From the NCBI GenBank assembly GCA_963529135.1, contig CAURYQ010000003.1, positions 19,827-83,826 on the forward strand: a stretch of DNA of 64,000 nucleotides, written 5' to 3'. The DNA comes from an uncultured Pseudomonas sp. (GTDB taxonomy: Bacteria > Pseudomonadota > Gammaproteobacteria > Pseudomonadales > Pseudomonadaceae). The notes under the pieces are model-generated. The model was not told the DNA's origin, made no database searches, and was given only the letters and a program-made list of their open reading frames with translations. Position numbers and translations under genes: made by a program. This document shows positions 5,476 through 63,852 of the stretch, one piece after another; positions within the stretch are counted from its first letter, which is position 1, and each line of letters starts with the position of its first letter.

Positions 5476-6369
5476 ATGTCGAGTACCCACCGCTTCCCGC
5501 TGTTGCTCATCGGGGCCTTCGTGGCCCTGTATTTCGTATGGGGTTCAACCTATCTGTTCATCCGCATCGGTGTGCAGAGCTGGCCGCCCATGCTGATGGC
5601 CGGGGTGCGGTTTCTGATCGCCGGGGCGCTGTTGTATGGCTTCATGCGCTGGCGAGGGGCGCCAGCGCCGTCCTGGTCACAGTGGCGGGCGGCGGGCATC
5701 GTGGGGTTTCTGCTGCTCAGCTGTGGCAACGGCGGCGTGACCATTGCCGAGCATGCTGGCGTGGCGTCCGGCGTGGCTGCACTGGCGGTGGCGACGGTGC
5801 CTTTGTTCACCCTGGTGTTTGGCTTGATGTTTGGTTACCGCAACTCGGGGCTTGAATGGGCCGGGATCGCCCTTGGCCTGGCCGGCATCGCCTTGCTCAA
5901 CCTGGGCTCCAACCTGCAGTCGAGCCCGCTCGGTGCGGCGCTGCTGATATTCGCCGCTGCCTCGTGGGCGTTCGGATCGGTCTGGAGCAAGCGTCTGCCC
6001 ATGCCAGCCGGCCCGATGGCCAGCGCCGCGCAGATGCTGGTCGGTGGCACGGCGTTGCTGTTGGGCAGCCTGCTTTCGGGGGAGCGCATGACGCAGCTGC
6101 CCACCGCTGCCGGCTGGGGCGCGCTGGCTTACCTGGTGTTCTTCGGCTCGATCCTGGCGTTCAGCGCCTACATGTACCTGCTTAAAAACGTTCGCCCGGC
6201 GGCCGCCACCAGCTACGCCTACGTCAACCCCGCCGTGGCGGTGTTGCTGGGTATCGTGTTTGCGGGGGAGCAGATTGGTGCCGAGGAGTGCATCGCCATG
6301 GCAGTGATCATCGGCGCGGTGGTTTTGATCGGTCTGCCGCAGTGGCGTAAGGCTCGACCCATCGCGTAG
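5476..6369 (+). CDS. EamA/DMT-family transporter (YedA-like)
   Basis: About 10 TM helices and duplicated EamA halves (FVWGSTYLFIRIG ... ASWAFGSVWSKRL). Confidence 0.85.
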   Translation: MSSTHRFPLLLIGAFVALYFVWGSTYLFIRIGVQSWPPMLMAGVRFLIAGALLYGFMRWRGAPAPSWSQWRAAGIVGFLLLSCGNGGVTIAEHAGVASGVAALAVATVPLFTLVFGLMFGYRNSGLEWAGIALGLAGIALLNLGSNLQSSPLGAALLIFAAASWAFGSVWSKRLPMPAGPMASAAQMLVGGTALLLGSLLSGERMTQLPTAAGWGALAYLVFFGSILAFSAYMYLLKNVRPAAATSYAYVNPAVAVLLGIVFAGEQIGAEECIAMAVIIGAVVLIGLPQWRKARPIA

Positions 6370-6450: not shown

Positions 6451-7782
6451 ATGAATTTCGCCAAACTCGGCCTGATCGAACCCTTGCTGCGCACCCTCCA
6501 GCTACGGGACTACACCACCCCCACCCCGGTACAGGCCCAGGCCATCCCCGCCGTGCTGGCCGGTCGCGACCTGATGGCCGCTGCCCAGACCGGCACCGGC
6601 AAGACCGCAGGCTTTGCCCTGCCCGTGTTGCAGCGCCTGGCACTGGAGGGCGAGAAGGTTGCCGCCAACTCGATTCGAGCGCTGGTGCTGGTGCCCACCC
6701 GTGAGCTGGCAGAACAGGTGCACACCAACGTTCGCGAGTACGCCGAGCACCTGCCGCTGAGCACCTACGCGGTGTATGGCGGGGTCAGCATCAACCCGCA
6801 GATGATGCGTCTGCGCCGCGGCGTGGACGTGCTGGTGGCGACACCGGGCCGGCTGCTGGACCTGTATCGCCAGAACGCGATCAAGTTTAACCAGGTGCAG
6901 ATTCTGGTACTCGATGAAGCCGACCGCATGCTCGACCTGGGCTTTGCCGAGGAGCTGCAGTCGGTGTATGCCGCATTGCCGCGCAAGCGCCAGACGCTGT
7001 TGTTCTCGGCGACGTTCTCGGATCAGATCCGCATGCTGGCAGGTCTGGCGCTCAACGACCCGCTCAGCATCGAAGTCAGCCCCCGCAACGCTGCAGCGGC
7101 GAGCGTCAAGCAATGGCTGGTGCCGGTGGACAAGAAGCGCAAGGTCGACCTGTTCTGTCACCTGTTGCGCAAGCAACGCTGGAAGCAGGTGCTGGTCTTC
7201 GCCAAGACCCGTAACGGTGTTGATCAGTTGGTCGAGCGCCTGCTGGCCGAAGGCGTGAACGCCGACGGCATCCATGGCGACCGGCCGCAGGCGACGCGGC
7301 AACGCGCGCTGGACAGCTTCAAGGCCCGCGAGGTGCAGGTGCTGGTGGCTACGGATGTGGCGGCTCGCGGGCTGGACATTGATGACCTGCCGCTGGTGGT
7401 CAACCTGGACTTGCCGATCGTGGCCGAAGACTACGTGCACCGTATTGGTCGCACCGGCCGCGCCGGCAACAAGGGCGAGGCGATTTCGCTGGTCTGTGCC
7501 GATGAAGTGCAGTTGCTGGCGGCCATCGAAGTGCTGACTCGCCAGACCTTGGCGCGTCATGATGAGCCTGACTTCATTCCTGATCACCGCGTGCCCTTGA
7601 CCGATGCCAGCGGTCAGGTGATGAAGAAGCCCAAGAAACCGAAGAAGCCCAAGGAAAACAGCGCCAAGCGTGGGCTTGGTCGCTGGATGGACAGTGACGA
7701 GGCAGGCACGGCGCAACCGGCGGTGAAGGCGGTGCGCAAGGTACCCAGTTTCAATGGTGGGCCGCGTAAACGTAAGCCTTGA
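6451..7782 (+). CDS. rhlE: DEAD-box ATP-dependent RNA helicase RhlE
   Basis: Q motif, Walker A AQTGTGKT, DEAD (VLDEADRM), SAT, HRIGRTGRAG and a basic Lys-rich C-terminal tail. Confidence 0.92.
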   Translation: MNFAKLGLIEPLLRTLQLRDYTTPTPVQAQAIPAVLAGRDLMAAAQTGTGKTAGFALPVLQRLALEGEKVAANSIRALVLVPTRELAEQVHTNVREYAEHLPLSTYAVYGGVSINPQMMRLRRGVDVLVATPGRLLDLYRQNAIKFNQVQILVLDEADRMLDLGFAEELQSVYAALPRKRQTLLFSATFSDQIRMLAGLALNDPLSIEVSPRNAAAASVKQWLVPVDKKRKVDLFCHLLRKQRWKQVLVFAKTRNGVDQLVERLLAEGVNADGIHGDRPQATRQRALDSFKAREVQVLVATDVAARGLDIDDLPLVVNLDLPIVAEDYVHRIGRTGRAGNKGEAISLVCADEVQLLAAIEVLTRQTLARHDEPDFIPDHRVPLTDASGQVMKKPKKPKKPKENSAKRGLGRWMDSDEAGTAQPAVKAVRKVPSFNGGPRKRKP

Positions 7783-45731: not shown

Positions 45732-48700
45732 ATGGCCCAGATGCCGTTTTCTCCATGCAGCGATGCAAGCAATTGCACCGACCAATCGGTCCACATGCTT
45801 GGAAGGATTTTCGGGCCTGTCATCGACTCGCTGGTCAAAGGGATTGACCCCAACACCGTCGATGCAGGGAATAACATCCTTGCGACCATGTTCAGTTTCT
45901 TCAATAGCGGCATCCTTATCATCGGTTCGCTGATCGTCTCCTACGTGGCGGTCATGGGCGTGACCAATACGGCGAACGATGGTGAGGCCATGGGCAGGAG
46001 CTGGTCGTCCCTGTGGACCCCTGTTCGGATCGTCGTGGGTGGGGCCGTGTTGTTGCCAACCACGAGCGGCTTTTCCTTCATTCAGCTGATTGTGCTGATG
46101 TTTTCGCTGTGGGGCGTCGGGTTTGCCAATGGCACCTACAAGGCTGGGATGGCCATGGGCATATTGTCTCCTGACGGTTTGGTCGCAGGCGTTAATGCAC
46201 CCGGTAATTTCTACGGGCTGAGGGATTTCGCCCGGCAGTACGCGAGCGCAGCGTACTGCGCAAGAGCCGCCACGTACGTATACAGCGGGGCTAATGTAAC
46301 GCCCGTGTCTACCGGTGGTGCCCCCGTGCCTGACAAGACGATGGTGGTCGACGGCCGAAGGGAGCAGACGTTTTTCCTGAAAGATCGGAATGAAGCGAGC
46401 AACCTGGCCGGCGGCTCTGCTATCTGTGGCACCGTCAAACTCTCATCCTACTCGCCGCAACCAGCCGAAGAAGCGATACCGCAGGCGCTTGAGCAGCTGC
46501 GCGCTACTGTGCAAGGCAAAAAGGTGGAGATGGCGCTTCTACTCATGGCGGACATCAGAACCTGGGTTGGGAGCTGGCCATTCACGGTGAATGATCCCGG
46601 TTGGGAAAATGTTGACTCCAATCGCCTCAACGAGATCGTCAAGGCGCGGGAAGCTCAGTTGGCTTCGCAGCTGGCCGCCGAGGTCACCAACCAGCAGGGT
46701 GGAGTCGAAAATGGCCTTGAGGCCTTCATAAAGACACTGACCGACGACGGCTGGGCTGCCGCAGGGGGCTGGTTCCAGCGAGTAGGGATGGTTCGCAGTC
46801 AAATCGCGGGTGTGCTAGCCGATCCTGTAGGCTCGGTCGGCGCTCCCTCGTTAGGGGGGCTGCCCGCTGACGCGCGCGCCTCACTGTTGACCAACAGTGT
46901 CACTACTGTTGCTGAAGCGATCAATGCCAAGGCTGAGGAACGTACAAGCAGTACGCAATCGAGAGCCACCAAGGCCGAGGACATTGCCAGCCTGATTCCC
47001 AAGGACCCAAAGAGCGATATCAACCTCAGCTCGTTGCGTACGGACATGGACGCCAAGATGTCCTCATTCGTCAACGGGGTGATGCTAAACGTGGTGGAAA
47101 TCGCTACTGGAGCGGGCAGTAACGGCCAGACCCCGCTTTGCGGGACGGCGGGGCAGATGGGGGGATCGCTTAACCGCATGAAATGCGTGGGCGACTACCT
47201 GACCGTGGCCCGGGCAGGCATTCTAGTAGCGGATGTGGCCATCAAGACCGCAGGTACTGCAATACGAGTAATTGCCGGTACGCTGTCGTCGGTCAAAGGT
47301 TTGGGTAATGGGCTTGATCTGGACAAGATCGTCACACCCTTGTGGGACTGGGTACTGGAGGTGCCGGTCAAACAGTTGGCGCTCATGGCGACCTACATGG
47401 AGCCGTTGGCTTTCTATTTCGGGGTCTTCCTGCCGAGCCTGCCTTATACCCTGTTCATGATCGTATTCGTCGGCTGGGTACTTGCCGTGTTGCAGTCGAT
47501 CATCGCTGCCCCGTTATGGGCAGTAATGCACATGACGCCTGACCGTACCTTCGTAGGCTCGCAGACTCAGGGCTACTTGCTACTGCTGTCTCTGTTCGCA
47601 CGGCCGGCCCTTGCCATCCTTGGCCTATTCGCTGCTGTTCTGGTATCCGACCCGGTGATCGACTACATCGCCAAAGGGTTCTTCGCAATGCGTGGGGCTG
47701 TTGTCACGTCGTCCGGCAACGTAGGAGCTATCTCGGATTTCCTGACGTTTGCCTGGTGGTTCATGGTCTTCGGCTTGACGCTGCTACCGGTGCTTTACAT
47801 GACCTTCGGCTTGCCGCAGACGCTACCCGATACAGTGCTTACCTGGATAGGTGGTGGCCTGCAGAGCATGGGTGAAACCAGTGCCGTAGGTGACATGCGC
47901 GGTGGCATGGCCCGCGTTGGCTCAAGCGTGCAGGGCTCCAGCACCGGTATGCGCTTGGGAGGTGGTAATGCACAAGGCAAGCTCAGTGGGCCCAATGGCG
48001 GGCCGCCAGATGGTCCACAGGGCGGTGGCCCGGGTGGCGGCGGCGGAGGTATCGGCGGTGCTGGGTCCAGTGGTGGCGGACGTCCAGCGCTTCTCAATGC
48101 CAACAACCAGGGCGTGGGTGGAGATGGTCAGGATTCGGGCAGTGGCGGCGGTGGGGCCGCCGGACAGGATGCGGCACAGGCCAACCGTACCTTTGGTGAG
48201 AAGGTGTCAGATGCTGCCGGCGTTGGGCTGGGACGAGCCATTACCGGCACTGCCGGTGCTACGGGCCGGGCCATGCGTGGCGCCGGCGGTGCTGCCTTGT
48301 CAGCCGGTCGCGCGGGAATCGAGTCATTCCGCAGTCCAGATGGTGGCTCCTCCGCAGCCCGTGTTCGCAGCGGACTCAAGGCAGGGGCATTGGCTGCGGG
48401 TGCTGGATTGGCTGGAGCAGCGAGCCGGGCCGGCGCCGATTACAAACAAGCCTTCTCAACCGCAGGTGCAGAAGGAAAGGCCGCGTTCAACGAAGGCAGC
48501 GACGCACGGATCAAGGCTTATAAAGAGTCGCTTGCAGGCGGTTCGGCACCTGCCGGTAGCGAAGCGGGTGGTGAACCCGTTGGAGGTGATACCGGGCGGT
48601 CAGGCACGGACGTGGCGGGCCAGGGCTTCGAGCAATCAGCCAGCCCAGCCGGTTCGGCACCTGCCGGTAGCGAAATGGATGGTGAGCCCGCTGGGATTGA

Positions 48701-49010
48701 TGCCGGGCGTTCAGGCATGGGCGGGGCGGGTCAGGGCTTCGAGCAATCAGCCAGCCCAGTCGGCTCGGCGCAGGCAGGCAGTGGATCTTCCGTGCCGGGC
48801 AGCACCACCTCGGGCGTTGGGGGCGCAGGCCAAGCGTTCAGCGAGGCGTCAAGCCCTGCGGGTGCCGCGCCCGGCAGCAGTGCTGATACATCTACGGGTA
48901 GTGATGAACGTGCTGGCGGTGGTCAAAACAGCGCGAGTCGCCCAGCGGCACGCACAGGTGATCCCTATGCAACCGACCGTTCGACGGTAGGTAATCAGGA
49001 CGATAAATGA
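45732..49010 (+). CDS. dotA: DotA/TraY-family polytopic membrane protein with a long Gly/Ser/Ala-rich repetitive C-terminal extension
   Basis: The N-terminal block LGRIFGPVIDSL...NILATMFSFFNSGILIIGSLIVSYVAVMGVTNTANDGEAMGRSWSSLWTPVRIVVGGAVLLPT matches the DotA signature region. Multiple TM helices occur around residues 560-700. The tail from about residue 740 is low complexity. Confidence 0.85.
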   Translation: MAQMPFSPCSDASNCTDQSVHMLGRIFGPVIDSLVKGIDPNTVDAGNNILATMFSFFNSGILIIGSLIVSYVAVMGVTNTANDGEAMGRSWSSLWTPVRIVVGGAVLLPTTSGFSFIQLIVLMFSLWGVGFANGTYKAGMAMGILSPDGLVAGVNAPGNFYGLRDFARQYASAAYCARAATYVYSGANVTPVSTGGAPVPDKTMVVDGRREQTFFLKDRNEASNLAGGSAICGTVKLSSYSPQPAEEAIPQALEQLRATVQGKKVEMALLLMADIRTWVGSWPFTVNDPGWENVDSNRLNEIVKAREAQLASQLAAEVTNQQGGVENGLEAFIKTLTDDGWAAAGGWFQRVGMVRSQIAGVLADPVGSVGAPSLGGLPADARASLLTNSVTTVAEAINAKAEERTSSTQSRATKAEDIASLIPKDPKSDINLSSLRTDMDAKMSSFVNGVMLNVVEIATGAGSNGQTPLCGTAGQMGGSLNRMKCVGDYLTVARAGILVADVAIKTAGTAIRVIAGTLSSVKGLGNGLDLDKIVTPLWDWVLEVPVKQLALMATYMEPLAFYFGVFLPSLPYTLFMIVFVGWVLAVLQSIIAAPLWAVMHMTPDRTFVGSQTQGYLLLLSLFARPALAILGLFAAVLVSDPVIDYIAKGFFAMRGAVVTSSGNVGAISDFLTFAWWFMVFGLTLLPVLYMTFGLPQTLPDTVLTWIGGGLQSMGETSAVGDMRGGMARVGSSVQGSSTGMRLGGGNAQGKLSGPNGGPPDGPQGGGPGGGGGGIGGAGSSGGGRPALLNANNQGVGGDGQDSGSGGGGAAGQDAAQANRTFGEKVSDAAGVGLGRAITGTAGATGRAMRGAGGAALSAGRAGIESFRSPDGGSSAARVRSGLKAGALAAGAGLAGAASRAGADYKQAFSTAGAEGKAAFNEGSDARIKAYKESLAGGSAPAGSEAGGEPVGGDTGRSGTDVAGQGFEQSASPAGSAPAGSEMDGEPAGIDAGRSGMGGAGQGFEQSASPVGSAQAGSGSSVPGSTTSGVGGAGQAFSEASSPAGAAPGSSADTSTGSDERAGGGQNSASRPAARTGDPYATDRSTVGNQDDK
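48540..48785 (+). repeat. 111-bp (37-aa) in-frame tandem repeat, 2 full copies plus a partial third, in the dotA tail
   Basis: Copies start at 48540, 48651 and 48762. Peptide unit: GSAPAGSE(A/M)(G/D)GEP(V/A)G(G/I)D(T/A)GRSG(T/M)(D/G)(V/G)AGQGFEQSASP(A/V). Confidence 0.85.
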
Positions 49011-56006: not shown

Positions 56007-56447
56007 TCAGTAGGGCGGTTGTTCCGAATGCTGCGTAGGGTAGGGTGCCTCGTGTCCAGGATTGGCGGACTGTTCGCCAGTCTCTTCAGGTTGCCCATCT
56101 ACCGGCGCGCACACCAGTCCAGTGCGGACCTGGGCCGGATATTGCTGTACTTCATAGCCGTAGGCAGGCGGCTGGCGCATTTGCGGCGCTTGGCACACGC
56201 CTTGTACCGTGCCTTGGCGCGGCGTCGAGAAATCGCAGCTTTCTCCTTCATAGCGATTGGCGCATGAGCGATAAGCGTCAACCGGTGTGACCTGTCGTGG
56301 TACGGCCATATAGATGGTGCTGCGAGGCAACTCCTGCCATTGTCCTTCGGTGCTTTCTGGAAGCGGCTCCACGGGCGGCTGCGCATGCACGACACTGGTC
56401 ATGACGATTAAGCCCGCTAACAACAGACTTGCCTTATGTGCTTTCAC
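56007..56447 (-). CDS. hypothetical secreted Pro/Gln-rich small protein (146 aa, GTG start)
   Basis: GGGAG RBS 7 nt before the GTG at 56447. Signal peptide KAHKASLLLAGLIVMTSVVHA. Four Cys residues. Confidence 0.45.
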   Translation of the reverse strand: MKAHKASLLLAGLIVMTSVVHAQPPVEPLPESTEGQWQELPRSTIYMAVPRQVTPVDAYRSCANRYEGESCDFSTPRQGTVQGVCQAPQMRQPPAYGYEVQQYPAQVRTGLVCAPVDGQPEETGEQSANPGHEAPYPTQHSEQPPY

Positions 56448-56463
56448 AGGTGGACTCCCGATT

Positions 56464-56889
56464 TCAGAGACCTGGTTCGTAATCCGAACCACTGGCACGT
56501 TCAGGCGCAGGATCGGTGTGGTCCAGGCCGGCATTCACTTCCACGCCGCGCTCCTTCATTTCCTCGATCATGTATTCGTAGCCCACCATGAAATGCGCCA
56601 GGTCGTAATTGGGATCGGCCTGCTTGATGCGCGATGTCAGTTCGACGATTTCCAGCTTTACCGGGTCTGGCGTTTCGTCAGTGTCCCAACCGCTGGAATT
56701 ACGCTCGAGATTGTTCAAATGGAAGGCCTGGCTGAACGGTTTGTCAGCTACCGTTATTTCCCGGTTGAGCTTATGGTAGAGATCCTGGCCGCTGGCGCCT
56801 GCCTGCACGCTGGCGTCGACTACGCGAAGAAAGTCCCGATGGGCTTCGGGCGTGGCGGTTATTTCGTTCCAGTCGTTGTACACGGGCAT
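56464..56889 (-). CDS. hypothetical acidic protein (141 aa)
   Basis: AAGGAG RBS before the ATG at 56889. No signal peptide. Confidence 0.55.
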   Translation of the reverse strand: MPVYNDWNEITATPEAHRDFLRVVDASVQAGASGQDLYHKLNREITVADKPFSQAFHLNNLERNSSGWDTDETPDPVKLEIVELTSRIKQADPNYDLAHFMVGYEYMIEEMKERGVEVNAGLDHTDPAPERASGSDYEPGL

Positions 56890-56935
56890 TGCGTTCTCCT
56901 TGCAGGGCAGTTGGATGGTCGGGAGCGTGTGCACC

Positions 56936-58237
56936 TCAGGGCGCGAAGTCGTTGTCACGCGATGAGCCTGGCAGGCTGTTGCGAACAAGGTCGACGATGC
57001 CCTTGACCACTTCCTTGAGGCGTTCGGCAATGCGTTCCATGACTTCCCTGAGCCGTTCGATATGCGACTGGCCCTCACCGGCAAAGGCCGGAGTGTTGCC
57101 TGCGTCCTGGTGCATCTTGGCGCTGGAGGTTTCCAGCCGATCCTTGAGCTTCTCGTAGTGAGGGTTGCCCTCGGTTTCAGGGTTCAATAGCTCTTCCTGA
57201 GCGCGGCCATACTGCTTTGCCCACCCTGTAAGCGCCTTGTCCATGACTTTCTTGTTGCCTTGCGCCTCAGGTGACTGCGCAACGGCATTGACGAACGCCT
57301 GATGCAGGTCGCTGTATTCTCCGTCCGGCTTCATCTTTTCGATCACTTGCGGGACGGTAAGGCCTGCCTCATTGGCACGGTTTTCGATTTCCCGATGTAC
57401 CTCGGGCATTTTGTCGGCCGCCCAGAATGCTTCATGGGCCTTGTGATAGTTGTTGCCCGCTTTCTCGACTTGGTCAACGCGATACTCCGAGAGCCGGGGC
57501 AGTACCGGCACCCGACCCTCCAATGCATCCGGTGTTGCCATGACAGGCGCTGTATCGCCTTTTTCGGTGCCCGAACCGCTTAGCGCGCCGGCCAGCGCGC
57601 TGGCTCCCTTGCCCAAGCCCTGCATGGCTGCGCCGGTTAGCGACGCAACACCCTCTGCCAATTGCGCAGTCCCTTTGAGCAGAGTCTCAGCACCATTCTC
57701 GGGGCGCTGAGGCAAGGCTATCGGTTTGGCTTCGTCACCCTTCAGCGAGTCGTTCATGCGTTGGATATCGCCGGGATCAAGTTTTGTTTGTTCTGGCTCT
57801 TTGGGTGACACCACGCTCATGATTGCCTGCAGTAACTCTGGGGCGAGGGAAGTGGCGGGCATGGCGGACGACTGAGCAGCTGGCAAGACTGAAGCCGATG
57901 TGGCAAACGGCAGGGTTTCAAGCGTTGCAGCGTCGATTGAGCGCGCGCGCCATGTTACCGCCGAGCCGACGCTTTCACTGGTTAGCATCATCGGCTCGCC
58001 CGCCTTGACCGCCGTTTCCTGCATCGCCTGCTCCAAACCAGGGGCCCATAGCGTCTGCTCACCCGCATCGGTCTTCAAGATGACGTAATAATTGCCCTGA
58101 TGCGTGGAGTCGTCTTCAGAAGGCGCTGCACCGTGATGGACCAAAATGCCCGCATAGCGATGGTCGGCCTGGGCTTGTACCCTTGCAGCCGAATCAGCGA
58201 TGGATGAAGCAGGCTTGGCGGTGTCTTTGGGTTCCAT
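56936..58237 (-). CDS. hypothetical protein (433 aa); the N-terminal approx. 100 aa resemble a domain seen in plasmid/ICE polyvalent proteins (KfrB/LPD7-like, tentative)
   Basis: YAGILVHHGAAPSEDDSTHQGNYYVILKTDAGEQTLWAPGLEQAM pattern. The rest is Ala-rich and helical. Confidence 0.55.
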   Translation of the reverse strand: MEPKDTAKPASSIADSAARVQAQADHRYAGILVHHGAAPSEDDSTHQGNYYVILKTDAGEQTLWAPGLEQAMQETAVKAGEPMMLTSESVGSAVTWRARSIDAATLETLPFATSASVLPAAQSSAMPATSLAPELLQAIMSVVSPKEPEQTKLDPGDIQRMNDSLKGDEAKPIALPQRPENGAETLLKGTAQLAEGVASLTGAAMQGLGKGASALAGALSGSGTEKGDTAPVMATPDALEGRVPVLPRLSEYRVDQVEKAGNNYHKAHEAFWAADKMPEVHREIENRANEAGLTVPQVIEKMKPDGEYSDLHQAFVNAVAQSPEAQGNKKVMDKALTGWAKQYGRAQEELLNPETEGNPHYEKLKDRLETSSAKMHQDAGNTPAFAGEGQSHIERLREVMERIAERLKEVVKGIVDLVRNSLPGSSRDNDFAP

Positions 58238-58264
58238 CTGTTTCTACCTTTCGTATGCGCCGCA

Positions 58265-59398
58265 TTATCTAATGGATCTGGTAACAGCTCCTTTCTGAGC
58301 GCGATCTCGTGCCCATTCGGTCTGTGCCCGTTGACCTGCCAATTTCTGCGACGCGTAAACGGCAAGCAGTGCTTCAACTTTTTCTTTCTTGCGATAAATC
58401 GCTTCCGAGAGATAGTTACTAACCCCTACCGCTCGGTTGTAGTCGACCCAGAGGGCGCGACTGGAAACGTGGGTGATACTGGTGTTCCACTCTGCATCGC
58501 TAAACCGCCTGGTGGCTTCAGTCGTCAACATTTCAGCGACCGACATCGTGTCATACCCACCTATGGGTGGAGTAGGGAGCGCACCGTAACCATCGGCATC
58601 GGACAGATACGCTGCAGGTACCTTGCCGTCAGCCTGCGCCAGCGCCGCGTCGGCGTTGGCAGCTGCCACTTGCACAGGTTCCACTGTCGAGTCCGGCTGC
58701 ACGCCACCTGATGGCACGTTGCCGAACAGGATTTCGTGCTGGGCCTTGGTGTCCTTGCCCAGGATCGGATAATGCTCTGGGTGTCCGTCTTGAATAGGGT
58801 AAGTTTGGCAGAAATAGGGGGCTGGGTCAGTTTTCCAACCAATGTCTGCCTGGCGGTTGAACACAGGCGCTAGCTGCCCGGCATTGAAGGGACCCTTGTG
58901 CGCGTTTTCAGCGAACGCCTTGGCACGGGCCGAATCCTTGGCAGCCGTTCCATAGGTGAAGTGAAGGTGCTTGACCATCGATGCGCTGGGTGTGTTGCCT
59001 GACAAGCCCAGTTGTTGCCCGGGTTTCACCGTGACCCCGCGCTTGACCCCATTGGCGAAACCGCTCAGGTGGTAATAGGCCACCACGTCGCCATTGGCGC
59101 GTTCGATCAGCACGGCGTTGCCGGCCGAGCCGCGCAGGCCGGCAAAGACGATTTTGCCTTCGGTGGTTGCGTAAACCGGCTGTGACGAGCCGCTGGTGGA
59201 AAAGTCCAGGCCATCGTGCATGTGCGCTTTCTTGTTGGCTGAGCCAAAGTTGCCTGCACCACCGCCACGGAACTTGCCGAAGCGCCCTGAGACGACTTCT
59301 TTGTCCGTAGGAGACACCATGCATGTGTCTGCAAGGGTTGCTTGGGCTATGGCAATCATCGTGATGGCAACCATGCCACGCATAACGGTTGTGTTCAT
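58265..59398 (-). CDS. Secreted M23-family metallopeptidase (peptidoglycan endopeptidase) with an extra C-terminal domain
   Basis: Signal peptide. HxxxD motif (HMHDGLDF) and HxH-type motif (VKHLHFTYG) of LytM/M23. The 170-aa C-terminal extension ends in a helical region reminiscent of the upstream paralogues. Confidence 0.8.
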   Translation of the reverse strand: MNTTVMRGMVAITMIAIAQATLADTCMVSPTDKEVVSGRFGKFRGGGAGNFGSANKKAHMHDGLDFSTSGSSQPVYATTEGKIVFAGLRGSAGNAVLIERANGDVVAYYHLSGFANGVKRGVTVKPGQQLGLSGNTPSASMVKHLHFTYGTAAKDSARAKAFAENAHKGPFNAGQLAPVFNRQADIGWKTDPAPYFCQTYPIQDGHPEHYPILGKDTKAQHEILFGNVPSGGVQPDSTVEPVQVAAANADAALAQADGKVPAAYLSDADGYGALPTPPIGGYDTMSVAEMLTTEATRRFSDAEWNTSITHVSSRALWVDYNRAVGVSNYLSEAIYRKKEKVEALLAVYASQKLAGQRAQTEWARDRAQKGAVTRSIR

Positions 59399-59411
59399 GC
59401 GGGATGCTCCG

Positions 59412-60593
59412 TCACCTGACGCTCCGTTGTACGTTCTGTTTGGCTGCATCTTCAGCCGCTTCGCTGGTGCGTGCCTGTGCCCCACTGCTGGTCACTTGCA
59501 TCGAAACCAGTGAGGCCAATTGGGCCTCCATGTTTTCGTACTGGCGGTACTGTTTTTCCAGAATCGCCAAGTCCAGAGCCTTGATTTTCAGCAGCTCGAC
59601 CAGGGCCCCGCGTTCGTTCTGGGCAGCCATTACGCGTGCCCAGTTGTTGTACTCACTCGTATTTCCCGAGTAGCGCTTGACCTCTGTGCGAAAGTGCTGG
59701 GCGAGGGGCAGGTCAATGCCCGTTTCCTTGCCCTCGACGCCTGAATAATCCAGCTGGATGGCCTTCAAAGTCGCGATGGCCGGCGATACCAGTGCATCTT
59801 TGCGGGCCTTCGACAGCGCATAGTCAGCGGTGGCTGCCGACTGCCCGGCCGCTGCAGGCACCGGGCCATCGGGCAGCCCTGCGACGTTGTTCACGAAGCT
59901 GACTTTGGCGCTGTATAAAGGCTCATCCTCCATGGCAGGTTCGAACAGCGTGGCCACGGTAAGATCGGCCCCCGGCATGGAGCCTACACCCTTGCACAGA
60001 CCAGAGTCGGCTTGGTCTTGAGTGCAGAATGACTGGCGAGCCTTGAGCAGAGCCGCTTGTGTAGCAATAGGATCGGCGTAGGTGCCGGGTGCTGCGGCCA
60101 CTTCGGAGCGAACCCGCTGGCGCACCTCGGTTGCCATGTCTGCATCCCGGTTACTGATTACCTGGCGCGCGGCATAGACCGTACAGGGCGAATAACCTTG
60201 TCCAAATTCACCGCCATAATCGAAGCGCGCCTGCTTGACCCGCTCCGTCTGAGCCAGAACGTTAAGAGCGTTCGCTGTCTGCAGGGCGGAGTTGCGACCG
60301 GCCTCTGCCATGGTATTGGCTGACAACGCCTTCTGCTTGGTCAAGACGGCTATGGCCGACGTCAGGCGTTGGCTTTCGGTCTCGAGCAGCGCCGACAACG
60401 ACGCGTCCACTGTCGACATGGCAGCATTGAGCGTCTGCGTGGCGATGGTGAAGGCGGGCGCGACTACTGTCTCTTGATACTGGGGCGGGCAGTAAGCCCA
60501 TGCCAACGTTGACGTGAGTGCCAACGAAATGCCAAATGACACCTTCCACTTGCGCGACTCGCGTGACGGGTCGAAATCCTTTTTCATGTCCAC
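59412..60593 (-). CDS. Secreted protein, paralogue 1 of a triplicated family (possibly IcmX/TraW-like, tentative)
   Basis: Shares with 60595-61731 the blocks SA(I/V)A(V/I)(L/A)TKQ(K/E)ALSAN, FCTQ..AD..LC, LFEP, K.RKDAL, the Q.ERG.LVE-like block and QY.Q...L..LASLV. Confidence 0.68.
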   Translation of the reverse strand: MDMKKDFDPSRESRKWKVSFGISLALTSTLAWAYCPPQYQETVVAPAFTIATQTLNAAMSTVDASLSALLETESQRLTSAIAVLTKQKALSANTMAEAGRNSALQTANALNVLAQTERVKQARFDYGGEFGQGYSPCTVYAARQVISNRDADMATEVRQRVRSEVAAAPGTYADPIATQAALLKARQSFCTQDQADSGLCKGVGSMPGADLTVATLFEPAMEDEPLYSAKVSFVNNVAGLPDGPVPAAAGQSAATADYALSKARKDALVSPAIATLKAIQLDYSGVEGKETGIDLPLAQHFRTEVKRYSGNTSEYNNWARVMAAQNERGALVELLKIKALDLAILEKQYRQYENMEAQLASLVSMQVTSSGAQARTSEAAEDAAKQNVQRSVR

Positions 60594-60594
60594 C

Positions 60595-61731
60595 TTACTT
60601 CACCTGCTGCTTGGCGGTTTCTGAAAGGACCTTTTGGTAGCGCATTTCCAAAGGCCCCGCCATGTTGTCCGAGGAGGCAACCACCAGGGAGGCCAGGTTA
60701 GCCAGCAGACGCTGGTTCTGCTCATACTGCTGATGGTGTATCCAGACTTCCAGTCCGCCCATCTTGGCGGCCTCTACCAGCAACCCACGTTGGGTCTGAC
60801 GAGCGAGGTTGCCCGACCACTGCTGTGATTCCTTGCCCCCGAAATACTGATTAACGCGCAGACGCAGAACTTCATTCGGAGACTTGCCACCGAACTCCTT
60901 AGTGCGAGTGTTTGCCGCGTCGATCATCGCCAAGCTGTAGGTGGGTACCGACAGCAGCGCATCCTTGCGATTCTTCTGTGCCAAATAGGCTTCGCCGGCT
61001 GGTGTGCCACCGGCATTCTTGTCCAATGCCTGGTCAGGCGGGCCGATCACGTGCTGTATGTAGGCGGTACGGGCGTCAGTGGTCAGCGAATCGGCATCTG
61101 CTGGCTCGAACAGCAGCGCGGCGTTGGTGTCGCCGCCTGGTAGCGGACTGAGCGTACACAGGTTGGCATCGGCCTCCGCCTGTGTGCAGAACTTTTCACG
61201 ATGATTATTCAACCGTTGTTGCATGGCGTCAGGCGCCGATTTGACCAGCCGCCCTGGCGAGGCGTCCAGCGTGCCGACCGCCTGTTTGGCTCTGGCGGCC
61301 ATGGTCGTGAAGGCCAGATCCATGGATTTGTTCTTGGCCACGGTGCCGCACGGATCGAAGCCTTGGCCAGTGCCTGCGTTGAAATCCAGCCACGTCTTGG
61401 CCAGTGCAGAGTTTTCCTGCTGCGCCCGAATGGCGTTGACCAGCTGTTCGGCGGTCTGCCGGTTATTGTCCGCGACCACGTTGGCAGACAGTGCTTCTTG
61501 CTTGGTGGCGATAGCCACTGCCGAGATGATCTGCTCGAACTTGTAGGTCATCTGGCCACCGAAGCTGGTGCCGAATGCCCCGATGTTGGCCGAGACCGAA
61601 GCGGTCAACATGGCCAGTTGCGCCTCTGTCCACGCCTCTGCCGGACCGAACCCGTACAACGCACCGTAGCAAACGCTGGACATCAAGGTCGACCCTGCGA
61701 CGATGCCTGCTATCTTGAGTCGAAAATTCAT
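60595..61731 (-). CDS. Secreted protein, paralogue 2 of the triplicated family
   Basis: Signal-like N-terminus. Same conserved blocks as paralogue 1. 1-nt intergenic gaps on both sides. Confidence 0.68.
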   Translation of the reverse strand: MNFRLKIAGIVAGSTLMSSVCYGALYGFGPAEAWTEAQLAMLTASVSANIGAFGTSFGGQMTYKFEQIISAVAIATKQEALSANVVADNNRQTAEQLVNAIRAQQENSALAKTWLDFNAGTGQGFDPCGTVAKNKSMDLAFTTMAARAKQAVGTLDASPGRLVKSAPDAMQQRLNNHREKFCTQAEADANLCTLSPLPGGDTNAALLFEPADADSLTTDARTAYIQHVIGPPDQALDKNAGGTPAGEAYLAQKNRKDALLSVPTYSLAMIDAANTRTKEFGGKSPNEVLRLRVNQYFGGKESQQWSGNLARQTQRGLLVEAAKMGGLEVWIHHQQYEQNQRLLANLASLVVASSDNMAGPLEMRYQKVLSETAKQQVK

Positions 61732-61732
61732 A

Positions 61733-62488
61733 TCACTGCCCTGTGAGCATGGGTACGCGACGGTCAGTCACTTGCCCAACGAGAGAGTTGGCTGCCATGG
61801 CGCTGCTGGCCGAAGCGGCCAACTGCTGCGCCTGCGCGGCGTTGCAGGCGGCCGTTTTGCAATCGATATGCGCCTCGGCTCGCTGGTCGGTGATCATGGC
61901 CGCGTAAGCCAGTGCCGCCGTTTCGCCTTCAGGTGCGAGCGTCCGCTCGCTGAAAGGACCGGCGTAGTCGGCATCCCAGCCCTGCATTCCGTTGGCGTTG
62001 AGTGCACACATGCCCTGCCTGGCCTCGGAAACCGTGCAGTAAGTTGTACGGTGCATGGACAAGGTTTGTTCGTCGGCACTGGCGCGCGAGCCTACGCGCT
62101 GAGATGCGTATGAAGCCATCAGATGCGCGGCGTCCTTGTCGCGCTGAGACTGGGCTTCGACGAACAGTTTGCCTTGTTCCTGTGCGGTGCATTTGATCGT
62201 GACAGGTTGTCCTACGGCCGGATCGAACGATGAGACTGCCTTGACGGCGCGGTTCGACATATCGATGGCACCCACCGCATTGGCCAACTGTTTCTTGGCG
62301 TCGGCATCCATCTGCGAAACCACATTGGCCGACAGCGCTGTCTGCTTGACCGAGATCGCCCACGCACTCATTTCCGTTTGCATGGTGCTGATGAATGTAA
62401 GTACCGAGGCCCAGGACAAAGCCTGTGCGGGCAATGCCACTGCGGCCGTGCTGAGTCCGATAGCCAGAGCTGCTGCAATTTTCTTCAT
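61733..62488 (-). CDS. Secreted protein, shorter paralogue 3 of the family (251 aa)
   Basis: Signal peptide MKKIAAALAIGLSTAAVALPAQA. Retains VKQTALSANVV and YCTVSEARQGMC blocks. Confidence 0.65.
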   Translation of the reverse strand: MKKIAAALAIGLSTAAVALPAQALSWASVLTFISTMQTEMSAWAISVKQTALSANVVSQMDADAKKQLANAVGAIDMSNRAVKAVSSFDPAVGQPVTIKCTAQEQGKLFVEAQSQRDKDAAHLMASYASQRVGSRASADEQTLSMHRTTYCTVSEARQGMCALNANGMQGWDADYAGPFSERTLAPEGETAALAYAAMITDQRAEAHIDCKTAACNAAQAQQLAASASSAMAANSLVGQVTDRRVPMLTGQ

Positions 62489-62498
62489 ACCATGGACC

Positions 62499-63341
62499 TT
62501 AGTTGAACAGGCCTGCGGCCGAGCTGGGCGACCCGCTGCTGCTTGATGAGGAGCTGGCACCGCCACTTGAAGATGCGCCGGACGAGGTACTAGGTGCCGG
62601 TGCTGGGGTACTGGACGCAGCTGGGCTGACTGTGGTCGGGGCGGGGGTCGTCCCAGCACCTGTGCCGCCGCCGAAGTCGGTCTGGACGTAATTGAACGGG
62701 TTTACATCCACGGTGTAAGTGGCTTCGTACCCAGCTGCAGGCTTGTGATAGCTCGCACCCAGCTCAGGATCCAGGGTACTCATGCCTTTGCTGACCATGC
62801 CGTTGGTAAGCCCGTTGAGGTCGCCGATGGAAGTACCGCTGCTGACTTTGCCAATAGCTTGGTTGATGGGCGTGGTCACCATCGAGGCGACTTGCTGCAC
62901 GGCAGTGCACACTTTCTTCTGTGCGTACTTCAATACCGCCTGCTGGGCCGACGCCAAGATCGCACCCAGGCTTGGGATGGATCCTGATAGATCGAACAGA
63001 CTGCCGAGCCCGCCGAAGCAGTCTGCCGTGGCACTGAACAGCGATTCGACGTTAGGGGTTGCCGCAGACAGCTCGGTGTGAATCAACAGCGCATCATTGA
63101 TGGCCGCGCCAATCGAACCTTCTTTTTGGCCAGTGGCGCAGTCTTCTGCGTCCGCCTTGATTGCGTCTGCGACTACTGAGTTCTGTTGGGAGATCAGCTC
63201 GCTGGATGTGGCTCCCAAGCTACTGGTTGCAGCCAAAGCGGGTGCCGCCATCAGCCACAGGCCCAGCACACTGCCTAATGCTGCGCGAGTACCCACAGAT
63301 TGACCTGCCGCTGCTCCAAGCGTGCGCTGTCCGTTATACAT
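62499..63341 (-). CDS. Secreted protein with a Ser/Thr/Pro-rich C-terminal tail (280 aa)
   Basis: Signal-like segment LGLWLMAAPALA. C-terminus TPAPTTVSPAASSTPAPAPSTSSGASSSGGASSSSSSSGSPSS. Confidence 0.62.
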   Translation of the reverse strand: MYNGQRTLGAAAGQSVGTRAALGSVLGLWLMAAPALAATSSLGATSSELISQQNSVVADAIKADAEDCATGQKEGSIGAAINDALLIHTELSAATPNVESLFSATADCFGGLGSLFDLSGSIPSLGAILASAQQAVLKYAQKKVCTAVQQVASMVTTPINQAIGKVSSGTSIGDLNGLTNGMVSKGMSTLDPELGASYHKPAAGYEATYTVDVNPFNYVQTDFGGGTGAGTTPAPTTVSPAASSTPAPAPSTSSGASSSGGASSSSSSSGSPSSAAGLFN

Positions 63342-63852
63342 CTGCGTAATTCTCCATGATCTGTGAAATCTCGCACAGGCGCTCGTTTGAGAAGATCTCG
63401 CTGAGCAATCGGGCCTTGGTGAAAACCTCCAGCCGCTGTCGGAATACGCTCAATTCAAGAGACTCAGAGGCGTTGTCCGCTAGCAAAGGGGCCAGCGCGG
63501 GCTTGAAGGCATTATTTTGTTGGATAACGTACTGCAATAGGTAGGTGCAGCGTGCGGTGGTCAGGTGGGCCAGCATTTCGGCAAATGGACGAAGCACTTG
63601 GTGTAGTGAGCTGGCACAGCCATCCACCAAGTCCTGGACCTCCTGCATCAATAGCTGAATGTCGAACTGCGGCGCCCCATCAGCATGGTCTTGATCGATC
63701 GCCCAGCGATCGAGCGTGTTCATGCTCAACAGTAAGGTCTGTAGCTGGGCACTGTGGGGTTCCCTGGCAAAGTGACCCATCACACCCTTGCCCGTTAGGT
63801 CGAGCGACTCGATGGTAGGCGTAGGTGAGCCTTTGAAGCAGTATGTGTCCAT
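63334..63852 (-). CDS. hypothetical cytoplasmic protein (172 aa), first gene of the minus-strand operon
   Basis: Stop overlaps the next start (ATGTATAA). Preceded by an AT-rich leader. Confidence 0.58.
   Translation of the reverse strand: MDTYCFKGSPTPTIESLDLTGKGVMGHFAREPHSAQLQTLLLSMNTLDRWAIDQDHADGAPQFDIQLLMQEVQDLVDGCASSLHQVLRPFAEMLAHLTTARCTYLLQYVIQQNNAFKPALAPLLADNASESLELSVFRQRLEVFTKARLLSEIFSNERLCEISQIMENYADV

Follow-up and report, generated by a model that had tools for sequence, protein, structure and literature searches.

In Legionella pneumophila, a pentamer of the periplasmic protein IcmX on a DotA pentamer gates translocation by the type IVB secretion system (T4BSS), the channel being shut until activation (PMC12501162). 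IcmX is regarded as corresponding to VirB5, and DotA to VirB6 (PMC12857230); the similarity of IcmX to VirB5 is limited in a published comparison (PMC12501162). In type IVA systems the VirB5/TrwJ subunit can be multiplied, as in Bartonella Trw (PMC12857230), and two IcmX copies are already known from the type of T4BSS studied here, the pVM82 genes icmX1 and icmX2 of Yersinia pseudotuberculosis having been so named by MacSyFinder (PMC13664640; bioRxiv 10.1101/2024.06.14.598817). A related T4BSS, encoded by the kib island of Pseudomonas putida/capeferrum IsoF, has been experimentally established to kill bacteria and is aimed at Gram-negative targets (PMC9519443). Here we analyse a nine-gene minus-strand operon in a 64,000-nucleotide (nt) stretch of DNA, the window, from an uncultured Pseudomonas sp. 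(contig CAURYQ010000003.1, positions 19,827 to 83,826). This operon is probably the icmW–icmX-type operon of a kib/pVM82/pAB3-type T4BSS, and its three secreted paralogues would be IcmX/TraW-type machine parts rather than a toxin set.

The operon runs from position 63852 down to 56007, its neighbouring open reading frames (ORFs) being separated by, or overlapping by, 1 to about 43 nt (Table 1). A preliminary description made from the sequence alone had claimed nine packed minus-strand ORFs, with a Ser-rich secreted gene upstream and an M23 peptidase gene downstream of three secreted paralogues, and the ORF coordinates bear out both the packing and the order. By gene order and gene length the operon corresponds to PisoF_02349–02357 of the kib island; the IsoF gene lengths, which we derived from published insertion counts and densities, agree with those of the window ORFs within rounding. 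In the kib annotation the nine genes are "hypothetical" save for the M23 peptidase and IcmW (PMC9519443). The window also encodes the T4BSS components DotI, DotH, a TrbI-like DotG, DotD, DotC, DotB, DotM and an SLT transglycosylase, together with DotA/TraY, a DsbG-like protein and a Tle1-like lipase. The first gene of the operon matched the Pfam IcmW family PF23130 (E = 4.4e-11, 43.6 bits, over the 27-bit cut-off) and the NCBIfam model IcmW_IVB (E = 4.3e-8, under that model's cut-off). The paralogues thus stand in a T4BSS context, with an IcmW-like gene at the operon head and a DotA/TraY partner (453 bits) in the window. The gene order icmW–x–icmX was seen in other genomes too, and the slot directly behind icmW is the icmX slot in other T4BSSs, which lends positional support to the IcmX assignment.

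The three paralogues, which we call C, B and A in the order of transcription, are related to one another as the preliminary description had proposed. Pairwise comparison of A with B gave 33% identity across 314 amino acids (aa; E = 3e-46), and C matched B (E = 1e-11) and A (E = 3e-8) over about 150 residues of the N-terminal half. Comparison of family profiles extended this result, aligning residues 35–196 of C with residues 72–233 of B at 99% probability (E = 6.7e-18). The shared motifs quoted in the preliminary description are all present, with the correction that C reads VKQTALSAN where TKQ had been given. We also agree with it that all three have signal-like N-termini; signal peptides were called by eye from a basic N-terminus, a hydrophobic core and an AxA-type site. 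Lipoprotein status was considered for B and A and rejected, the Cys near the cleavage site lying outside any lipobox and being unconserved in B.

Four independent lines of evidence (fold, TraW profile, IcmX synteny and profile, and literature) assign A and B to the IcmX/TraW superfamily. A search of the protein structure archive with the AlphaFold model of A (predicted local distance difference test, pLDDT, 72.6) using Foldseek returned 9ngy_AP1 as the top match (probability 1.00, E = 0.027, TM-score 0.34, 212 columns), a chain that we confirmed to be IcmX of the Legionella DotA–IcmX protochannel. This was the sole standout, the runner-up having a probability of 0.08, and VirB5-type structures were absent from the Foldseek matches of A. 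A full-library profile search revealed a family of 348 representative clusters around A, and one A homologue carries a precomputed assignment to Pfam PF28212. When a broad A/B profile was built from 98 full-length family members, it matched R64 TraW over 172 columns, covering A residues 185–357, at 94.6% probability (E = 6.8e-8); a narrower profile reached only 25%. TraW of R64 (NF033888) is similar in size (400 aa), shares an FCT...C...PG.D motif and, in a joint tree, joins the A clade on a long branch.

Synteny and intermediate proteins connect the family to Legionella-type IcmX. Across 400 sampled genomes of the class, the broad A/B profile picked out a single gene in each of 18 small, low-GC genomes. 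At the six plus-strand loci for which an icmW-type gene was read upstream, the matched gene lay two genes downstream of it, and the four of these icmW-type genes that were scanned all exceeded the IcmW_IVB cut-off. Among the IcmX-position genes, two matched NCBIfam IcmX_IVB and one conj_TraW, all under the curated cut-offs. A profile of seven IcmX-position proteins matched both Legionella IcmX in the Protein Data Bank (PDB; E = 1.5e-8) and the kib-type profile (99.2% probability, E = 6.8e-20). The literature agrees: the published position of icmX1/icmX2 beside the type IV pilus cluster fits the pVM82 orthologues of B and A. B is 52% identical to the product of L002:7857-9002, which belongs to a pair of neighbouring genes next to the pil cluster that suit this description. 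A and B are full-length, remote members of the IcmX/TraW superfamily that stand outside its narrow curated families. The profile and structure comparison proposed in the preliminary description has thus yielded a modest IcmX fold match and TraW/IcmX profile matches, and fold, profile, synteny and literature support the first of its two alternatives, that the paralogues are diverged IcmX/TraW-type periplasmic components.

Several results weigh against this assignment. Pfam and NCBIfam scans of A, B and C gave nothing, the NCBIfam scan at E 1, and the IcmX_IVB (NF038225) and conj_TraW models, run over the whole genome of origin at E 10, gave nothing either; because these curated models miss A and B, we describe them as remote relatives and not as members of the narrow families. 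Sequence likeness to IcmX/TraW is limited to roughly the C-terminal half, and the fold match, obtained with a model of medium confidence, is modest. PDB sequences were searched with A and B and with two profiles, that of the A family and the broad one, and gave nothing relevant, and a search with one single IcmX-position protein found nothing; at the level of sequence, homology of A and B to Legionella-type IcmX is established via intermediate proteins only, and for the C-terminal half. Acinetobacter plasmids carry the three paralogues but no M23 gene, so the peptidase would be dispensable in some systems of this type.

The other two members of the set are incomplete in opposite ways. Paralogue C, which the broad A/B profile picks out in its own genome (8.7e-18), is the N-terminal half of an IcmX/TraW-like protein without the C-terminal helices. 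The M23 peptidase is its converse, an IcmX-type protein with an enzyme in place of the N-terminal helix. Its catalytic domain matched PF01551 (E = 7.4e-19, 68 bits, over the 28.7-bit cut-off), and H90xxxD94, H139 (in YYH) and H173xH175 were invariant in 15 of 15 full-length orthologues; since none of these zinc-binding and catalytic motifs is broken, we expect an active enzyme. A likeness between its tail and the paralogues had been noted in the preliminary description, and family profiles showed it to be both real and longer than claimed. Pairwise comparison of the tail with a paralogue gave only E = 0.021, but family profiles aligned M23 residues 150–370 with B residues 132–374 over 216 columns (94.8% probability, E = 5.4e-8), the last 73 columns of the tail matched IcmX-type proteins of other genomes at 96.2%, and the broad A/B profile detected the tail unaided in its own genome (1.9e-6). 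At two betaproteobacterial loci (L020, about 5900–6110; L021, about 7370–7570), the M23 position is taken by a secreted protein of 133–137 aa that holds little beyond the IcmX-type C-terminal helices, which suggests that these helices are a self-standing docking unit.

We then compared 21 loci. The order IcmW, Ser-tailed protein, C, B, A and M23 was kept in all 17 complete loci, namely a Xanthomonas citri plasmid, Yersinia pVM82 and 15 further loci from Pseudomonas, Halothiobacillaceae, Zoogloea, Massilia, Rhodanobacter, Acerihabitans, Thauera, Azoarcus and unnamed Betaproteobacteria. The remaining four are Acinetobacter pAB3 and the two betaproteobacterial loci with mini-proteins, which lack a full M23 gene, and a 1.5-kb fragment (L022) holding B and A only. 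The two mini-protein loci gave no IcmW-like match; pAB3-type plasmids, which PLSDB types as conjugative (MPF_I), have no M23 gene. One-to-one orthologues of A, B and C stood in the same order in the Acinetobacter, pVM82 and Xanthomonas plasmids and in 17 of 18 further loci, the eighteenth being the fragment. In pVM82, B is 52% and A 54–55% identical to the window proteins, and the whole operon follows the same order down to a large gene behind M23.

Orthologues from different genera are more alike than paralogues from the same genome. The joint tree recovered an A clade (99/88) and a C clade (100/99), leaving B versus C unresolved, and the same sub-groupings recurred within each of the three subfamilies. 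A Pfam scan of family members of odd length found no extra domains save in one probable chimeric gene call. Because the subfamily trees are congruent and orthologues are closer than paralogues, the triplication is ancient, predating the split of these systems, with the copies having travelled together. A, B, C, the M23 peptidase and the Ser-tailed protein form an ancient co-inherited module, and a multi-copy IcmX-type state marks this clade. The dating of the duplication suggested in the preliminary description therefore points away from a local event. Its remark that a triplication would be unusual holds outside the clade, R64 having one annotated traW and the 18 sampled genomes one gene each, but not within it, where the triplication is ancient and fixed.

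The same conservation bears on the second alternative of the preliminary description, in which A, B and C, delivered alongside the peptidase, would act as exported effectors or attack the cell envelope. Their signal-like N-termini, the killing of bacteria by the system (PMC9519443) and the T4BSS-dependent appearance of Legionella IcmX itself in culture medium (PMC12501162) would fit such a role. We nevertheless consider it very unlikely, since the proteins are homologous to a structural family, have one-to-one orthologues in conjugative-typed Acinetobacter plasmids and in Yersinia pVM82, show congruent trees and a fixed order, unlike variable effector cargo, and contain no toxin-type domain in the Pfam and NCBIfam scans. 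Nor does the locus have the make-up of effectors paired with immunity genes: A, B and C are fixed orthologues free of toxin domains, and the M23 gene has no conserved periplasmic neighbour. The paralogues might instead be interchangeable caps, each serving a different target range or state on the model of the multi-copy VirB5 of Bartonella Trw. Multiplied VirB5 and VirB2 copies provide a precedent (PMC12857230), and A and B, both full length, could each form a homopentamer. Yet every locus retains all three copies in one order, their trees agree and copy number is constant, where variable-tip arrays usually differ in copy number; in addition, neither C, without the C-terminal helices, nor the M23 protein, without the N-terminal helix, would alone be a complete IcmX-type subunit. 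We therefore judge interchangeable caps to be improbable.

A different role has to be weighed for the M23 protein, which could be an antibacterial effector loaded by its IcmX-type tail on the channel tip for delivery to the prey periplasm. The active-site motifs intact in all orthologues, the tail itself, the Gram-negative bacteria targeted by the system and the few transposon insertions in the M23 gene on solid medium are all consistent with this idea. It is made rather unlikely by the absence of a conserved periplasmic immunity gene adjoining the M23 gene in the loci examined, by the published killing defect of an effector deletion, which maps to PisoF_02333, and by the presence of the enzyme in Yersinia pVM82, a plasmid linked to animal infection; the protein is also not among the DeepSecE-predicted substrates (PMC13600407).

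For the machine-part assignment, we infer by analogy with Legionella that DotA is capped by a mixed assembly which includes a wall-cutting subunit. The IcmX-type proteins would be exported by Sec, would acquire disulfides with the help of the island DsbG/TrbB-like protein and would rest on the DotA pentamer at its periplasmic side, forming a closed central channel or tip as the Legionella IcmX homopentamer does. Since the three copies are distinct and their order is fixed, the cap would probably be mixed, not built of a single subunit. The M23 enzyme would probably dock through its IcmX-type helices. This would confine peptidoglycan cleavage to the machine, whether the wall being cut is that of the producer, while the machine assembles or its channel extends, or that of the Gram-negative target. 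We favour a mixed assembly over alternative caps because there are three fixed, non-redundant-looking copies and two are incomplete in complementary ways. A fuller version can be offered only tentatively, and we would not expect it to hold in every part: A, B and the half-copy C would form the mixed cap, into which the M23 enzyme would be built by its IcmX-type helices, replacing the N-terminal helix bundle at the tip; channel extension would bring the wall-cutting subunit into contact with peptidoglycan, be it that of the Gram-negative target or the producer's own, and loss of cap subunits would leave a mis-gated, harmful machine. Such mis-gating would explain why insertions are scarce in PisoF_02352–02355 and not in dotA or the core genes. 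Conserved Cys residues in the mature proteins are often odd in number: the A/B core and the Ser-tailed protein have three each, and C has five. A DsbG-like protein is encoded in the island as well, and intermolecular disulfides are conceivable.

The transposon data come from the published IsoF Tn-seq study, in which the essentiality cut-offs for insertion density were 0.013 in liquid, 0.011 on solid and 0.014 on mixed medium (PMC9519443). In the same three conditions, PisoF_02351 had densities of 0.009, 0.008 and 0.010, the M23 gene (02352) 0.025, 0.011 and 0.013, and B (02354) 0.026, 0.016 and 0.012 (PMC9519443). PisoF_02351 is thus under the cut-off in all three, its liquid value equalling that of the published immunity gene 02332 (0.009), and on solid or mixed medium the M23 gene and B come down to the cut-off or under it. 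The densities of A and C are 2–3 times under the island average of about 0.08, and dotA and the core genes show no depletion. Neither PisoF_02351 nor 02352 is mentioned in the main text of the Tn-seq paper (PMC9519443). PisoF_02351 could be a second protective gene, and the low densities could also be due to polar effects or insertion bias.

Table 1. Features of the operon and the DotA/TraY gene; positions are those of the window.
Feature	Position	Strand	kib counterpart	Remarks
IcmW-like adaptor gene	63334-63852	-	PisoF_02357	Operon head; counterpart by order and length
Ser/Thr/Pro-tailed secreted protein, 280 aa	62499-63341	-	PisoF_02356	8-nt overlap with icmW
Paralogue C, 251 aa	61733-62488	-	PisoF_02355	ORF extends to 62659; length counted from the Met common to orthologues; 10-nt gap
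Paralogue B, 378 aa	60595-61731	-	PisoF_02354	1-nt gap
Paralogue A, 393 aa	59412-60593	-	PisoF_02353	1-nt gap
M23 peptidase gene	58265-59398	-	PisoF_02352	ORF extends to 59485; start placed at ORF residue 30, where orthologues begin; 13-nt gap
M23 metallopeptidase domain	58952-59221	-		PF01551; predicted signal peptide at gene start
IcmX-like middle and C-terminal region behind the M23 domain	58289-58951	-		Profile comparisons
Cytoplasmic-looking protein, 433 aa	56936-58237	-	PisoF_02351	27-nt gap
Protein of about 142 aa	56464-56892	-	PisoF_02350	ORF extends to 57084
Secreted Cys-containing protein of about 146 aa	56007-56447	-	PisoF_02349	Last gene; ORF extends to 56534
DotA/TraY	45732-49010	+		Outside the operon; TIGR04346 DotA_TraY, E = 1.7e-135, 453 bits

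The Ser-tailed protein has a one-to-one orthologue at the same position in every complete locus. Its conserved core contains three invariant Cys, its Ser/Thr/Pro/Gly tail has GLFN at the end, and none of its 196 database relatives is named. Its profile showed no link to A/B, TraV or TraX and matched nothing in the PDB, and its AlphaFold model (pLDDT 48.8) was unusable for a fold search. A weak match (E = 0.19) led us to consider a TrbC/VirB2 pilin, an assignment that we rejected as unsupported. The closest database match was 98% identical for this protein versus 100% for paralogue A; even strains that are very closely related may differ in the low-complexity tail. In six of the sampled low-GC genomes, a small secreted protein (113–172 aa) is encoded directly upstream of the IcmX-type gene (L025:499-891, L028:617-958, L029:633-1151, L034:495-932, L037:372-842 and L039:334-774), with an icmW gene ahead of it in at least five of the six. 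These proteins mostly have a few Cys and a Ser/Thr/Pro/Gly-rich tail with an aromatic end, the tail of the L028 protein being acidic; they resemble the Ser-tailed protein in position and composition, and no sequence similarity between the two was detected.

Downstream of the M23 gene lies the gene of the 433-aa protein, which holds this place in most loci. Conservation is seen in the last 200 aa of the protein, which share 56% identity with the Xanthomonas copy and were detected in 14 of the 21 loci. Its N-terminus has a weak match (E = 0.0016) to a MobP1 relaxase segment, and comparison of its family with all module profiles gave nothing. The same position in pAB3 holds a 1244-aa LPD1-domain protein (L001:10255-13989), and the R64 tra region includes an LPD7-domain protein (L004:21574-25341); the gene after the IcmX module may encode a transferred protein of the 'polyvalent' type. 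The protein of about 142 aa is a DeepSecE-predicted T4SS substrate (PMC13600407) and occurs in only some loci, with variable adjacency, and homologues of the last protein, of about 146 aa, were seen in Pseudomonas loci only. The Xanthomonas citri plasmid has an extra secreted 145-aa ORF between A and the M23 gene (L003:10203-10640). Against all module profiles, neither this ORF nor R64 TraV, R64 TraX, the two last kib proteins or two Acinetobacter upstream ORFs gave a match above 20%. Upstream of the IcmW-like gene, all three plasmids carry a very large gene resembling the 'strawberry notch' helicase, which adjoins the IcmW-like gene in pVM82 (L002:1-5680) and in the Xanthomonas plasmid (L003:1-5654) and is separated from it by two small ORFs in pAB3 (L001:1-2902). 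For the corresponding kib site, beyond the end of the window, the published table has a large hypothetical gene, a nuclease and a helicase. Promoter-like hexamers ahead of the IcmW-like gene (63946-63907) were no better than expected by chance. Among sequencing runs, a search returned DNA or contig runs alone, sharing at most 0.52 of words, and none of RNA.

Compared with the described systems, this locus shares with Legionella the periplasmic location of IcmX, its gene downstream of icmW and the DotA/TraY partner, but Legionella has a single 466-aa IcmX that forms a homopentamer (PDB 9NGY), whereas here there are two full copies, an N-terminal half-copy and an enzyme fusion. In R64 the single annotated traW lies between traV and traX, both of them unrelated to C and to the Ser-tailed protein. 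The pVM82 system contains direct orthologues, and it differs in that the Pseudomonas system is a proven bacteria-killer. The pVM82 paper names two icmX copies only, makes no mention, in the passages searched, of a third half-length copy or of an IcmX tail on the M23 protein, and states that icmW is absent (PMC13664640, 2026); the gene that heads the orthologous operon in pVM82 (L002:5777-6298, 173 aa) matched Pfam IcmW at E = 1e-16 (61.8 bits, cut-off 27). Neither the third half-copy nor the wide conservation of the module is described in any publication that we found, and a full-text literature search found no paper treating IcmX and an M23 peptidase together.

The 2025 in situ structure identified DotA–IcmX as the gate of the Legionella machine, with one type of IcmX. 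Here, and across a large clade of plasmids and islands, the gate subunit appears as two full copies, a half-copy and a peptidase fusion that have long been fixed, in an operon belonging to a T4BSS experimentally shown to kill bacteria. Our analysis supplies names for four or five kib genes published as "hypothetical" and points out unreported signals in published transposon data. In P. putida IsoF, which is not a pathogen and can readily be manipulated genetically, how such a channel tip is built, whether its subunits mix and whether a wall-cutting enzyme rides along are open to study.

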